Part shown: positions 15,070-50,182 of the stretch, piece by piece
How the letters are laid out: each line of letters starts with the position of its first letter
How positions within the stretch are numbered: position 1 is the first letter of the stretch
Position numbers and translations under genes: made by a program
The notes under the pieces: model-generated
The model's input: the letters and a program-made list of their open reading frames with translations, nothing else
Told to the model about the DNA's origin: nothing
Database searches by the model: none
Source of the DNA: Acidimicrobiia bacterium
GTDB lineage: Bacteria; Actinomycetota; Acidimicrobiia; Spongiisociales; ZC4RG35
NCBI GenBank assembly: GCA_965203555.1
Contig: CBDBCY010000004.1
Coordinates: 288,001-352,000, forward strand
Length of the DNA: 64,000 nt
Direction: 5' to 3'

Positions 15070-16402
15070 CCTTATCATGCTATGTTATCCCAGGTCAGAA
15101 GCCATATCGGCGTAGCAAGTATCAGTATCAGTGTACGAACGTGTTTTGTGATTTACGCCCCCGACCAAGTGGGCAAGTTGCTGCCTCCGTATCTGCTATT
15201 TGCTGGGGAGCAGGGTTAGGGAGGAGGTCCTTGGTTAGGGGTTGAGGCCTCGCTGGAATTAGGTGGTGTAAACAAAACCGCCTAGGAGGCTGCTGATTTA
15301 TTCGGGTGGTTGAGATGCTTGGTTTGGGGGGGGAGGGGTGGGTTGTGGGATAATTTTGGGGTATGTTGAGCGTTTTGATCGGGAGTTGTTGGACGCGATG
15401 GCGGTGTGCGGTGATCTGGTTCCGGAGGGGTCGGTTTACCGGTTTTTGGCCGAGCATCGGACTGGGGTGTTCCCGGATGGGTTGTTCGAGAATGTTGTTC
15501 GGCCCTCGGGGTCGTCCGTCGGTTCCGGGGTCGGTGGTGGTGATGGTGTTACAGGCTTTGGAGGGCCTGTCGGATCGGGAGGCGAATGGGTCGGTTGCGG
15601 TGTGATATTCGTTGGAAGGCCGCGGCGGGTTTGTCTCTGGTGGATGGGGGGTTTCATCCGACGGTGTTGACGCTGTGGCGGGCGAGACTACGCAAAAGTG
15701 AGACACCGGAGCGGATTTTCGACGCGGTTAGGAAGGTGGTGGACGAAACTGGGATATTGAGAGGTCGTCGCAGGCGGGTGTTGGACTCTACGATCTTGGA
15801 TGATGCGGTGGTCACCCAGGACACGGTGACGATGATCTGTGCCCAGATACGCAAGGTTCGCCGTGTGATATCCCGAGCGCGGCAGGTGGTGTTGTCTCGT
15901 GATCTGTGAACAGGCTGGTAAGCCGTCGTGTGATTGGTCGGATCCGCAGAGTCGTTCCAACCTGATCGACGGGTTGGTCACCGATGGGCAGGCGGTGTTG
16001 GACGCGGTCGGAGGTATCGATCTGGATGCTGGGCAGTCGGAGGCGGTGGGGTTGTTGGGGGTGGTGGTCGGCCAGGACGTGGAACCGGACCCCGACCGGG
16101 AGGGCAGATGGCGTATCGCTCGGCGGGTGGCTTCGGATCGGACGATCTCGGTGGTCGACTCGCAGGCTCGTCACGGACGCAAAACATCGTCGCAGCGTTT
16201 GCGACGGTTACAAGGCTCACATAGCGGCCGAACCGGAGACGGAGATCATCACCGTCGTTGAGGTCACCGCCGCCAATACCCCCGACGGGGAGACCGGTTT
16301 GAAGATGTTGGCGGGCGAACCGTCGGGCACAGAGGTCATCGCCGATTCTGCGTACGGATCAGGCAAGGTCCGCGCCCAGCTGAAAAAGAGCGGGCATACC
16401 GT

Positions 16403-17805
16403 GAGCCTGTATAAATGTTTGTGTGAGGTGGGTTCTCTGATTGCTTTGGCTGGTGAGAGTGCCGGCCGGAGAGGAGATTGAATGTCTGTTGATCATGTGA
16501 TACCGGAGCCGGCTGGTGTGGCTGCCGGGGTGGTGTCTGACGAGCTGGTGGATGCTGTGCTGGCTGATGCTGCTGCTGGTGGTGTGGATCTGCTTGGCCC
16601 TGACGGTGTGCTGCCCGAGTTGACCAAGCGGGTGCTGGAACGGGCCCTTTCTGAGGAGTTGACTGATCATTTGGGCTATGAGCACGGCGATCCGATCGGC
16701 CACGGCTCGGGTAACAGCCGCAACGGGACCACTCCCAAACAGGTCCTTACCGAGATCGGCGCGGTGGATCTGGACGTTCCCCGTGACCGCAACGCCACGT
16801 TCGAACCGAAGATCGTTCCGAAGGGCGCCCGGCGCCTGGAGGGTTTCAACGCCAATATCGTGGCCCTGTACGCCCGGGGTCTGTCCACCCGTGACATCCG
16901 TTCGGAGTTGAAGCGCATGTACGGTGTGGACGTGTCGCCGGCGCTGGTTTCGAAAGTAACGGATGGGATCGTCGAGGAGCTCACCGAGTGGCAGAACCGC
17001 CCGCTTGACCGCTGCTATCCCCTGCTGTACATAGACGCCATGGTGGTTAAGGTCCGAACCGACGGTACGGTCATCAACCGCCCAGCGTACATAGTGGTCG
17101 GGGTCGATGTGGAAGGAAGCAAACACGTCCTCGGTGTGTGGTTGGGCGACGGCAGCGAAGGCGCCAAGTACTGGCTGTCAGTGCTGACCGAGATACGCCA
17201 CCGAGGCCTGGAGGACGTGCTGATCGTGTGTTGTGACGGCCTGAAAGGACTCCCCGACGCGATTGAGGCCACCTGGCCTCAGGCGCTGGTCCAGACCTGT
17301 GTCATACACCTCCTGCGGGCCTCTATGCGGCTTTGCAGCTGGAAAGACCGCAAAATGGTGGTCAGAGGGTTACGGGCCGTGTACACGGCGGTGAACGCCG
17401 AGGCGGCCGCCCAGGCGTTGGACGAACTCGATGACCAGTGGGGAAACCGCTATCCCGGTGTGATACGAATATGGCAACGGGCGTGGGAAGAGTTCACCCC
17501 GTTCCTGCGGTTCCCTCCCGAGCTTCGCCGAGTGGTGTACACCACCAACCTGGTGGAAAGCGTTCACTACCAGTTGCGGAAAGTCACCAAAACCAGGGGC
17601 CATTTCCCCACCGACCAATCCGCTCTGAAGTTGCTGCGCCTGGCGGCTCGGAACATCGCCAACAAGAGAGGAGGAAACCTCGGCACCGGAACCCACGGCT
17701 GGAAACTAGCCCTCAACCAACTCGAAATCCACTTCCCCAACCGAATGAACTTAACCCACTAAAACCCATGAACCCACACCCTCACAAAGACAATTTGACA
17801 AGCCC
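16403..17805 (+). mobile_element. IS256-family insertion sequence, apparently intact
   Basis: Imperfect 26-bp TIRs (GAGCCTGTATAAATGTTTGTGTGAGG vs reverse complement GGGCTTGTCAAATTGTCTTTGTGAGG); perfect 8-bp target duplication CATACCGT at 16395-16402 and 17806-17813. Confidence 0.95.
16482..17762 (+). CDS. IS256 (Mutator-type) transposase
   Basis: SRNG..K, VPRDR..FEP, G.STRDI, LYIDA, CCDGLKG, QTCVIH, YTTN.VES; GGAG RBS. Confidence 0.96.
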   Translation: MSVDHVIPEPAGVAAGVVSDELVDAVLADAAAGGVDLLGPDGVLPELTKRVLERALSEELTDHLGYEHGDPIGHGSGNSRNGTTPKQVLTEIGAVDLDVPRDRNATFEPKIVPKGARRLEGFNANIVALYARGLSTRDIRSELKRMYGVDVSPALVSKVTDGIVEELTEWQNRPLDRCYPLLYIDAMVVKVRTDGTVINRPAYIVVGVDVEGSKHVLGVWLGDGSEGAKYWLSVLTEIRHRGLEDVLIVCCDGLKGLPDAIEATWPQALVQTCVIHLLRASMRLCSWKDRKMVVRGLRAVYTAVNAEAAAQALDELDDQWGNRYPGVIRIWQRAWEEFTPFLRFPPELRRVVYTTNLVESVHYQLRKVTKTRGHFPTDQSALKLLRLAARNIANKRGGNLGTGTHGWKLALNQLEIHFPNRMNLTH

Positions 17806-18608
17806 CATACCGTCACTGTCAAGCCCATACCCCAAAAGAGAAACCATCGGTTGGGTGTTGACCAGTTCACCCGTGACGATTTCGACGTGGATCACGACCG
17901 ACGGCAGGTGACCTGCCCGGCCGGGGTAACGGTGAATATCAGCCCGAAAGGACGGGTCCGGTTCGCAAAAGCCTGCACCGGTTGTGGTTTTCGGAGTCGT
18001 TGCACCACCAGCAAAAGAGGACGCCAAATGCTCATAGGTCCCCATGACCGTTTATTGGTGCTTGCCCGCCGAAAATGGAAAGATCCCCCACCAAACACCG
18101 GTAAACAAGTACCGGCCGACGGTCGAACGGCTGATCGCTTTGCTGGTCGCCAACGGCCACCGCAAACTCCGATACCGGGGAACAACCCGAAACCGACAAC
18201 AACTACACACCCGCGTAGCGGCGATCAACCTGCGCAGGCTCATCAACCTCAGACTGCACCCCACCACCACCGGATGGGCCACCAACCCCACTTAAACCCG
18301 GGGACCCCCACCAGAGAACAAGCAAACACTGGAGGACACCGGCCACCGCCCCCCGGAACCGGTGCGCCCACCGCTCCGCTCTTCGAGATCAAGCCCAGGA
18401 CCCACCACCACCCCAACACCAATACTCAGCAGCCTCCTAGGGGCTACCACGCCTCACAATTCCCGTTTCCGCATTGATCTATGGTCAGATGTCCTTCAAA
18501 ACATCCTGGTGCCAGAGGGATCATGGCCGAAAGGAGAGACAAACCGCCACCTCCTGTAAGCTAAGGTTAGGCGAGATGGTTCGGTTAGGTTAGATTGGGG
18601 GAAAGGTT

Positions 18609-26684: not shown

Positions 26685-27239
26685 TTAGTTGACCTGCACG
26701 GTCACGTTAGTGGGGTTGGTCAGTATGTCGAACACGGCCGATATCTTTTGCGACTGGGCGACCAATGCCTCGACATCCGCCGCGCTGGTCTCGTCGGCGT
26801 TGATCTGGTAGCTGACCCGCACGTCGCTGAATCCGTTTCGCACCTCGGGATCTGCTCCGAGAATGCCTCCGATGTTCATATCGGCTTCCACCGTTGCCTT
26901 TACGGAACGAAGCTTGATCTCGCGATTCTCGGCCACGGCCGCCACGCCGGCGGTCAGGCAACTCGCCAGGCCCGCCAGAACGATCTCCACCGGAGTGGCG
27001 GCGTTGTCCTCGGCGTTGAACTCCAGAGGATGGTCGGCTTCCAGTTGGTAGGTCGACTTGTGGGCGCGCTCTTCACCCAGTCCGAAGTACCCGCCGATCT
27101 CCGTCTTGCTGTGGGTTCCGTGCACCCACTCGTTGGAGGCTCTCCACGTGTAGTCGCCCGCGGCCGGTGTCTCTCCGACCACTCCCCGGGCAAACAGCAG
27201 ATGCGCCGTGTCTACTCCGTTGATCTCACCTTTGCTCAT
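26685..27239 (-). CDS. OsmC family protein
   Basis: ADHP...D.A.TPVE.VL..LASCL, G.LG...VRNGF, SAVFD; AAGGAG RBS. Confidence 0.88.
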   Translation of the reverse strand: MSKGEINGVDTAHLLFARGVVGETPAAGDYTWRASNEWVHGTHSKTEIGGYFGLGEERAHKSTYQLEADHPLEFNAEDNAATPVEIVLAGLASCLTAGVAAVAENREIKLRSVKATVEADMNIGGILGADPEVRNGFSDVRVSYQINADETSAADVEALVAQSQKISAVFDILTNPTNVTVQVN

Positions 27240-27890
27240 TGGATTCTCCTTTGTCTTGTGTTGGCTGGTTCGATGTATGGGTTTCTTATGATCTGATCGT
27301 CATCCTATAGGATCGGGTCCCTGCTGTCGGAGTCTTGACCCTTGAACCAAGGACCTGTCCCGGTGGATGTGAAACTGACGCCGCGGCCGGGGGCCATATT
27401 CGGCTCCCGGGTGGTGGCGTCGTCTAAGGGCGGTAAACAGTCCCGCCCGGGTAAGCCACCCGGGAGCCGGGACAACCCATGTAGCCGCGCATATATGTGG
27501 CGGCAAAGAACAGGGTATCCATACGACTGTGCTCCTCTCGCCTGCGCGCCATTGGGAGGCTAGTCGGATACCTGCACATCTGGGAAGACACCATGTACAG
27601 GGACCATGATAGCCACACTTTTAGAAAAACGTGCGTCTTAGGTGGAGAATAGGACAGTCACCGGTGGGTCCAACTGGTCACGACACCACTCCCTGGTACC
27701 CACTGCGGTTGCTGAGATGGGGACAGGCGTCGACTCTCGGGGAGCCGGCTTGACTGGAAGGTACGCTGTGCGCAGATTGGCGTTCCCCAGGAACTGGATT
27801 GGGATTGCATGCTGTGGGACGGCGCCGGCAAGGCGCGCCTCTCAAATCCTTGGGCCGGTGGGATTTTTGCCCGTGTAGCCTTTGGAATTG

Positions 27891-49633: not shown

Positions 49634-50182
49634 ATGGCACGCATCAAGGTCATTCCCGATGACGCCTGGGACGGAGCACTCGGCGAACTCCATCCGCGGG
49701 TTGTCGATCCTGCATACGGCCGGGTCGACAACATCCTGGCCGTGCACTCGCTGAACCCCCGCGGCATGGCGGCGCATCAGGGTCTGTACGAATCGGCCAT
49801 GGCCGGCACCGCAACGCTCCGCAAGGTCGAGCGGGAGATCATCGCTCTGGTCGTGAGCCTTGAGAACGACTGCCACTATTGAGTCGTCCACCACCGGCGC
49901 GGTCTGCGTCGGCTGCTCCACGACGACCAACTCGCCGCCGCGATAGAACAGGACTGGACAACCGCAGCGCTGTCGTCAAAGCGGGTGGCGATGCTGAGGT
50001 TCGCGGTCAAACTGACGGTGACACCGAGCGCGATGAATGACGCCGATGTCAAAGCCCTGCGAACCGTCGGCTTCTCTGATCGTGACATACTCGACATAGT
50101 CGAAGTGGTCGGTTACTACGCCTACGCCAATCGGATCGCCGATGGTCTGGGCCTTGAGACCGAAACGTGGATCCCCGACTGA
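49634..50182 (+). CDS. AhpD/carboxymuconolactone decarboxylase-like peroxidase, predicted selenoprotein (CxxU), 182 aa
   Basis: ORFs 49634-49882 and 49985-50182 are in the same frame; only stop between them is TGA 49880-49882 in RE.IA.VVS..N.CHY*VVHH; SECIS-like hairpin follows; C-terminal FA.KLT..P..D...L...G.SD..I. Confidence 0.88.
49883..49912 (+). promoter_or_regulatory. bacterial SECIS element (candidate)
   Basis: TGA, 11-nt spacer GTCGTCCACCA, stem CCGGCGC / GCGTCGG (one G-U pair), loop GGTCT. Confidence 0.8.

Follow-up and report, generated by a model that had tools for sequence, protein, structure and literature searches.

Selenocysteine (Sec, U) in a CxxU motif of AhpD-like proteins (COG2128) was first reported in 2005 from the Sargasso Sea, where 27 sequences with predicted Sec insertion sequence (SECIS) elements were described (PMC1088965). 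For this family, the Global Ocean Sampling survey lists 299 selenoproteins under the name "AhpD-like 1" (PMC2398784), and an "AhpD-like protein, TIGR01926, CxxU" is tabulated in a 2026 review in Applied and Environmental Microbiology (PMC13188914). With the Actinobacteria, a survey of 2006 placed the phylum among three rich in selenoprotein families (PMC1794560), SelA and SelB were reported to be enriched in sponge symbiont bins that include Acidimicrobiia (PMC5649159), and a 2026 preprint describes selA, a divergent selB, selC, and selD in 84/84 genomes of Actinomarina, a member of the class Acidimicrobiia. We describe here a gene of this kind from an Acidimicrobiia bacterium (Spongiisociales; ZC4RG35; GCA_965203555.1), found in positions 288,001-352,000 of the forward strand of contig CBDBCY010000004.1; this whole stretch of 64,000 nt is referred to as the window. 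The gene, at window positions 49634-50182 of the plus strand, very probably encodes a single 182-residue, all-helical AhpD-like thiol-selenol oxidoreductase in which Sec is inserted at the UGA of codon 83. It adds a new, misannotated member to a selenoprotein family that was described in 2005, and Sec use has been reported in its class. An earlier note on this DNA had regarded it as a hidden selenoprotein and the Sec trait as uncommon in the phylum; the gene is not of a new kind, since the three catalogs cited above already list CxxU proteins of COG2128/TIGR01926, and the rarity of the trait is doubtful in light of the 2006 phylum ranking and the Actinomarina genomes as reported. Beyond the works cited here, no literature linking this Acidimicrobiia clade with selenoproteins was found in the library searched.

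The frame opens with an ATG at 49634 and, as translated, consists of 82 residues, a TGA, a further 99 residues, and a terminal TGA. Its sole in-frame TGA stands in the context NDCHY-TGA-VVHHRRGL, and its MARI... start is conserved among relatives, in which stop codons precede the start. With translation table 11, the locus is instead divided into two open reading frames (ORFs), 49634-49882 (82 aa) and 49985-50182 (65 aa). The earlier note had described the single 182-codon frame and had foreseen the fragmentation by ordinary annotation, and the public databases bear out the latter. A search of 5.8 billion proteins returned 563 relatives, the best 120 of which were classified: 94 were C-terminal halves beginning one codon past the TGA column, four were N-terminal halves ending ...C-H-Y, two were internally deleted forms, and the full-length entries carried Cys (11), Trp (8), or Leu (1) at that column. 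Some of the half-length fragments (98 of the best 120) bear the name "peroxidase-related enzyme" or "hypothetical protein". Among the full-length entries, Trp is found in P0002, P0004-P0007, P0016, P0017, and P0024, and Leu in P0003; the Trp forms lie mostly on short contigs (943-2089 nt) and may possibly have arisen from the calling of TGA under another genetic code. Gly at the Sec column, following an intact first Cys, was observed in P0259 and others (8/146).

The assignment of the read-through protein to its family extends across the TGA. For all profile and structure programs, Sec83 was entered as Cys. The protein scores 137.4 bits with TIGR01926 ("peroxidase-related enzyme", NCBIfam; cutoff 81.8), its residues 25-175 align with positions 23-174 of the 178-position profile, and the Pfam CMD domain covers residues 45-121. 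Sequence matches were obtained to five solved structures (2pfx, 3c1l, 2oyo, 6k40, and 2prr; E = 4e-28 to 5e-18), and the C-H-Y-U motif was aligned with the C-x-Y-C of 2pfx, 3c1l, and 2oyo such that their second Cys falls on the UGA column, exactly where the earlier note had placed it. Cys homologs are widespread in the databases: when 1.84 billion cluster representatives were searched exhaustively without a profile, 4379 relatives were obtained (E up to 0.001), and C-x-x-C was present in 95/146 new cluster representatives. Membership in AhpD sensu stricto (TIGR00777) was rejected (16 bits, cutoff 191.95), as was membership in NF041238, the AhpD_rel_CFYUT "(seleno)protein" family, with a partial profile match of 35.7 bits against 175.

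At the level of genomic DNA, the TGA is invariant. A scan of species-representative genomes gave 510 relatives, the best 80 of which, all TGA forms, define 79 loci with 68-92% amino acid identity and a coverage of approximately 20 kb per genome. Nearly all are Acidimicrobiia/Acidimicrobiales metagenome-assembled genomes (MAGs), including Candidatus Poriferisodalis, Aldehydirespirator, Spongiisocius, Microthrix, and Ilumatobacter. One MAG with the same TGA gene at 70% identity (L076) is labeled Gammaproteobacteria, which may reflect mis-binning or gene transfer. In a codon-agnostic check, TGA occupied the column in 83/83 intact copies (that of the window and 82 in the 79 loci), with TGC, TGT, or TGG in none; the possibility raised beforehand that the TGA is peculiar to this assembly among relatives with TGC or TGT thus finds no counterpart in these genomes. 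In 600 random pairs, the 60 codons preceding the TGA had a ratio of nonsynonymous to synonymous polymorphism (pN/pS) of 0.23, and codons +10 to +95, which follow it in frame, had a ratio of 0.335. Purifying selection on both sides of the TGA in one frame indicates that the UGA is read through.

The gene is multiplied within genomes and turning over. Two intact TGA copies occur within 20 kb in each of L025, L028, and L053, while L009 and L017 represent the same contig with copies approximately 12 kb apart. Four partial matches were not counted as intact copies (Table 1): a divergent tandem paralog with S-G-Y-W and a real TGG at the column, two C-terminal remnants in one genome, and an internally deleted copy devoid of both CxxU motif and hairpin, which is annotated as "hypothetical protein" (P0015).

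The second line of evidence concerns the RNA. The hairpin CCGGCGC-GGTCT-GCGTCGG is indeed present at 49894-49912, 11 nt past the TGA, with 7 bp (including one G-U) and a GGTCT loop. When 72 distinct 69-nt segments of the relatives were folded jointly with RNAalifold, one consensus helix only was obtained, the 6-bp stem with loop GGTCT listed in Table 1, in which 97.9% of stem cells are paired. The outermost pair of the 7-bp stem (49894/49912) is not conserved, and at the fourth stem pair 59 of the 72 sequences have G-C, 11 have G-U, and two cannot pair. Stronger RNA evidence than covariation is provided by the freezing of synonymous sites. A profile of synonymous entropy was calculated over 57 columns of codons that are at least 4-fold degenerate and show at least 90% amino acid conservation; the four lowest values belong to the adjacent codons +5 to +8, which form the 5' arm and the loop and reach one base into the 3' arm, and the other columns have a median of 1.41 bits. 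Thus, Arg+5 is CGG in 80/81 copies, Arg+6 is CGC in 76/78, Gly+7 is GGT in 83/83 (GGC being the preferred Gly codon elsewhere), and Leu+8 is CTG in 82/83. A scan of approximately 1.6 Mb, on both strands, for a TGA followed after 15-21 nt by a stem of at least 5 bp closing a GGTC(T) loop in an open frame recovered 74/83 of the AhpD-like copies and 13 chance-like matches. The hairpin of one sequence alone is therefore not beyond chance; what exceeds chance is its placement at the column of the CxxC motif, together with its conservation.

The earlier note had likened this hairpin to the SECIS element of fdhF, with a stem 11 nt after the UGA and an apical GGUCU. On the DNA of Escherichia coli K-12, that description of fdhF is correct: an 11-nt spacer separates its TGA from a 17-nt stem-loop containing GGTCT. 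Taken together, the recoding of the UGA as Sec proposed in that note is supported by the constancy of the TGA, the Cys homologs, the conservation of the downstream frame, the frozen hairpin codons, and the offset and frame shared with fdhF.

The predicted structure is consistent with a redox-active AhpD-type protein. An AlphaFold model built from 12 sequences (predicted local distance difference test, pLDDT, 90; predicted template modeling score, pTM, 0.86) is all-helical with nine helices, and places Cys80 at the N-cap and Sec83 in the first turn of helix 81-95. Foldseek aligned this model with 2pfx, 3c1l, 6k40, 2prr, and 2oyo at template modeling (TM) scores of 0.82-0.87. Residues E68, C80, Y82, U83, and H87 are each invariant in 83/83 copies, and the spacing E-12-C-x-Y-C-x-x-x-H equals that of Glu36/Cys48/Tyr50/Cys51/His55 in PA0269, one of the two proteins, together with Mycobacterium tuberculosis AhpD, for which the AhpD proton relay has been described (PMC3141380). 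As judged from sequence, Cys80 and Sec83 are the putative C-x-x-U redox pair, with Glu68, Tyr82, and His87 on the positions of the relay. The model also matches the thiol-dependent debrominase Bmp8 (6ohi/6ohj; TM 0.80, 18% identity) and, weakly, human Sestrin2; the AhpD-type fold also serves chemistries besides the reduction of peroxides.

Given these features, a ribosome reaching the UGA would encounter, 12-29 nt downstream, an mRNA hairpin with a 6-bp G+C stem and a GGUCU loop that would recruit SelB with Sec-tRNA(Sec), and Sec would be inserted at codon 83 in place of termination; both the binding of SelB and the insertion of Sec are steps that we infer from sequence. The true stop of the gene, also a TGA, is without such a hairpin. 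Sec83 would occupy what we take to be the position equivalent to the attacking Cys133 of M. tuberculosis AhpD. The enzyme would most likely reduce a partner peroxiredoxin, or else a peroxide or a disulfide as substrate, by way of a selenenylsulfide.

Components of the Sec pathway were sought in the genomes carrying the gene. The sole sel match in the 79 loci and the window by tblastn and ARAGORN was a partial SelD (Table 1), confirmed with TIGR00476 at 252.7 bits (cutoff 125), which lies approximately 9 kb from the AhpD-like gene and adjoins katG. In addition, four of its closest database relatives are recorded on contigs equal in length to those of L011, L051, L056, and L073, which suggests that in these loci SelD and the TGA gene share a contig. 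The aligned database SelD calls (284-323 aa) all begin downstream of where E. coli SelD has its Cys17/Lys20 active-site motif, as would be expected if selD itself has an in-frame TGA that truncates the call. A second TGA-interrupted gene, with the motif W-TGA-G-C, was found by the hairpin scan described above 4-9 kb from the AhpD-like gene in 5/79 loci, and none in the window. Its AhpC-TSA/Redoxin domain spans the TGA, its score against NF041054 ("ResA-like WAxxUGC motif-containing protein") is 263 bits, just below the cutoff of 300, and a hairpin of 5-6 bp with a GGTCT loop lies 20 nt past the TGA; it is probably another selenoprotein, of a known family (WAxxUGC Prx-like). The occurrence in two unrelated redox genes of a TGA on the catalytic Cys, followed by the same loop, argues for a working Sec system in the lineage. 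With the window itself, 74 candidates for TGA read-through were examined with Pfam and a domain spans the TGA only in the AhpD-like gene, so that no second selenoprotein is found there. An OsmC-like ORF among them was rejected; its domain (residues 166-270) lies wholly after the TGA (codon 69), which denotes an ordinary gene start.

Several results weigh against the decoding of this UGA as Sec. No selA, selB, selD, or tRNA-Sec was detected in the 64-kb window (ARAGORN, Rfam, and NCBIfam on 63 ORFs), the only tRNAs of which, by ARAGORN and Rfam, are tRNA-Leu, tRNA-Pro, and tRNA-Met. Nor were selA, selB, or tRNA-Sec found in approximately 1.5 Mb of the 79 loci (tblastn with E. coli SelA/SelB/SelD and ARAGORN), a result which, at approximately 20 kb per genome, is uninformative. 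Covariation of the hairpin, which had been put forward as a check, turned out to be thin: the 6-bp helix is conserved, but the compensatory changes amount to three cells in two pairs (L059, L064, and L065), two of which also alter amino acids, and 9/432 stem cells are unpaired (L005, L011, L019, L022, L045, L060, L072, and L076). The fold of the single sequence is ordinary for its G+C-rich context, with a minimum free energy (MFE) of -22 kcal/mol, z = -0.53, and 59/200 shuffles folding as well. The lower helix that extends the hairpin in the MFE fold of the window (49883-49888 with 49922-49927) is paired in 78% of cells across the 72 sequences, with one pair unpaired in 41/72, and was dropped. 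A bulged U in the upper stem, as in fdhF, matters for SelB binding, and none is predicted in the window hairpin, where the 6-bp stem is continuous. The Cys-form clade P0008-P0013 keeps the peptide HHRRGLRRL, and hence this segment is also under constraint at the level of the protein, the codon profile itself being drawn from TGA forms only. Finally, Rfam gave no SECIS match over the whole window at gathering thresholds, and at E up to 10 over 49840-49980 returned two chance matches only and no SECIS model; the 2026 Actinomarina preprint describes the Rfam SECIS models as uninformative for bacterial SECIS.

Read-through without selenium, whether by a genetic code in which UGA specifies Trp or Gly or by a near-cognate tRNA (Trp, Cys, or Arg) stimulated by the hairpin, is the alternative that survives best, and even so we regard it as improbable. 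It could draw on the database proteins with Trp (8/120 and 5/146), Gly (8/146), or Leu at the column after the first Cys, and on the divergent tandem paralog with its real TGG. These Trp and Gly forms are, however, known from protein entries alone, mostly on short contigs, and 0/83 genomic copies have TGG, TGC, or TGT, despite the drift to be expected were those residues acceptable. Among 26 window ORFs with strong family matches, the stops are TGA in 14, TAG in six, and TAA in six; with TGA as the ordinary stop of 14/26 well-supported ORFs, that of the gene itself included, a code reading UGA as Trp or Gly (code 4 or 25) is excluded. Moreover, the column is that of the redox Cys, at which Sec and Cys regularly replace each other, and the lineage also has SelD and a second, probable selenoprotein gene.

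Less probable still is that the TGA is a real stop and the locus a pseudogene or split gene, producing an 82-residue N-terminal fragment and perhaps a separately started C-terminal piece. Such a view would fit the end of the table 11 frame at 49882, the two pieces emitted by gene callers, and the existence of decayed copies in relatives, namely the internally deleted copy and the two C-terminal remnants noted above. It does not account for the same TGA in every intact copy over 68-92% identity, for its location exactly on the catalytic Cys column, or for a downstream half kept in frame at the pN/pS given above; furthermore, the next in-frame start is at 49985, 34 codons past the TGA, and a piece begun there would be without His87 and helix 81-95. 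That a sequencing or assembly error has replaced TGC or TGT, one base removed from TGA, is a general possibility only and of negligible probability, as the 79 loci supply 82 further copies with the same codon, each assembled independently, and many of these loci come from long-read complete chromosomes.

Decoding of the UGA as Sec thus remains the preferred interpretation, and the features on which it rests are collected in Table 1 with the other loci mentioned. The remainder of the window is a segment of an actinobacterial chromosome carrying polA, rpsA, uvrB, ispH, and genes for a proteasome ATPase, Dop, and PrcB. It is syntenic, at approximately 81% nucleotide identity, with only five of the 79 loci (L018, L036, L005, L043, and L042). 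No conserved partner gene emerged for the AhpD-like gene: a flanking nitroreductase-family ORF and a small ORF are kept beside it in 5/79 loci, the syntenic ones, and the gene neighborhood was consequently dropped as a clue to function. Elsewhere in the window, an IS256-family transposase gene (393 bits) lies between two IS1182-family transposase pieces, in what looks like an insertion sequence within another insertion sequence.

Table 1. Coordinates of the AhpD-like gene, its functional sites, and other loci discussed in the text.
Feature	Sequence	Positions	Strand	Remark
AhpD-like ("peroxidase-related enzyme") gene, predicted selenoprotein	window	49634-50182	+	182 codons, then terminal TGA stop at 50180-50182
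Glu68 codon	window	49835-49837	+	Glu position of AhpD proton relay, 12 residues before Cys80
Cys80 codon	window	49871-49873	+	putative partner of Sec83 in C-H-Y-U
UGA codon, residue 83, probable Sec	window	49880-49882	+	second Cys column of homologs
His87 codon	window	49892-49894	+	relay His position, four residues after Sec
Conserved SECIS-like hairpin	window	49895-49911	+	stem 49895-49900/49906-49911 (6 bp), loop GGTCT 49901-49905
OsmC-like ORF	window	26688-27506	-	rejected as selenoprotein
IS1182-family transposase piece	window	15984-16478
IS256-family transposase gene	window	16482-17759
IS1182-family transposase piece	window	17851-18474		entire region 15984-18474
Second TGA-interrupted gene	L006	17933-19198	-	W-TGA-G-C
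Second TGA-interrupted gene	L010	16337-17488	-	W-TGA-G-C
Second TGA-interrupted gene	L012	15071-16228	-	W-TGA-G-C
Second TGA-interrupted gene	L016	6427-7578	-	W-TGA-G-C
Second TGA-interrupted gene	L045	13737-14888	-	W-TGA-G-C
selD, partial	L062	1-792	+	TIGR00476
Divergent tandem paralog	L063	5461-5691		S-G-Y-W
C-terminal remnant	L026	11759-11845
C-terminal remnant	L026	16334-16522
Internally deleted copy	L037	427-546		P0015

By halving the gene, public gene calls remove both the active site and the true protein from the proteomes of a widespread actinobacterial class of marine and host-associated bacteria. The gene can serve as a cheap marker of Sec use in these genomes, with a bearing on their selenium demand and oxidative-stress biology, and the close similarity of its hairpin to that of fdhF makes heterologous Sec insertion in E. 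coli easy to try. Knowledge of selenoprotein families and of Sec decoding is unchanged by it. A further-reaching proposal, which we hold to be rather doubtful, is that the genes form a clade special in two respects: its SECIS core, nearly frozen throughout the class, could be decoded directly by the SelB of E. coli and may dictate the invariant peptide R-R-G-L-R that comes after the active site, and the multiplication and turnover of the gene would point to a major redox function dependent on selenium in Acidimicrobiia of marine and host-associated habitats, maybe one other than the detoxification of peroxides. The match of the hairpin to fdhF in loop, offset, and frame is the ground on which a foreign SelB could be expected to decode it, and the match of the fold to Bmp8 is what prompts the suggestion of a non-peroxide function.

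Compared with known systems, the hairpin is closest to the SECIS element of E. coli fdhF. In both, a stem-loop with a G+C stem of 6-7 bp begins 11-12 nt after the UGA, and GGUCUG starts at an offset of 19 nt from the UGA and in an identical frame, such that Gly+7-Leu+8 is encoded in both genes. They differ in the loop, predicted for the window to be of 5 nt (GGUCU) closed by C-G and in fdhF to be GGUC closed by A-U, as well as in the lower helix, which is not conserved among the relatives of the window gene, and in the bulged U, which is not predicted for the window stem.

Among proteins, the five solved homologs, 2pfx, 3c1l (Mlr4105), 2oyo, 2prr, and 6k40 (Deinococcus radiodurans AhpD), resemble the window protein over nearly its full length at 30-33% identity and with the TM scores given above; unlike it, all have Cys rather than Sec, and most are structural-genomics entries without a known substrate. 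M. tuberculosis AhpD (TIGR00777; 1gu9 and 1lw1) shares the Glu...Cys-x-x-Cys-x-x-x-His spacing, with window residues 58-97 aligned to profile positions 108-147, but it is not an ortholog: the TM scores to 1lw1/1gu9 are 0.50-0.54, the motif is located elsewhere in the chain, and in place of His132 the window protein has Tyr, as does PA0269. NF041238 (AhpD_rel_CFYUT) has in common the AhpD-type domain and the C-x-Y-U motif, yet it is a longer and different family, matched only at positions 211-337 of its 357-position profile. The closest system is the AhpD-like selenoprotein family itself, with which the comparison was made by its published descriptions. The window protein scores above the TIGR01926 cutoff, has its predicted Sec at the same CxxU position, and is accompanied by widespread Cys homologs and by a candidate SECIS with apical-loop guanosines just downstream of the UGA; its relatives are named "uncharacterized peroxidase-related enzyme" by the Joint Genome Institute (JGI). 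Nothing categorical sets the two apart, and within the family the clade of the window gene is distinguished by being specific to the Acidimicrobiia, often present in multiple copies per genome, and furnished with an unusually invariant hairpin.

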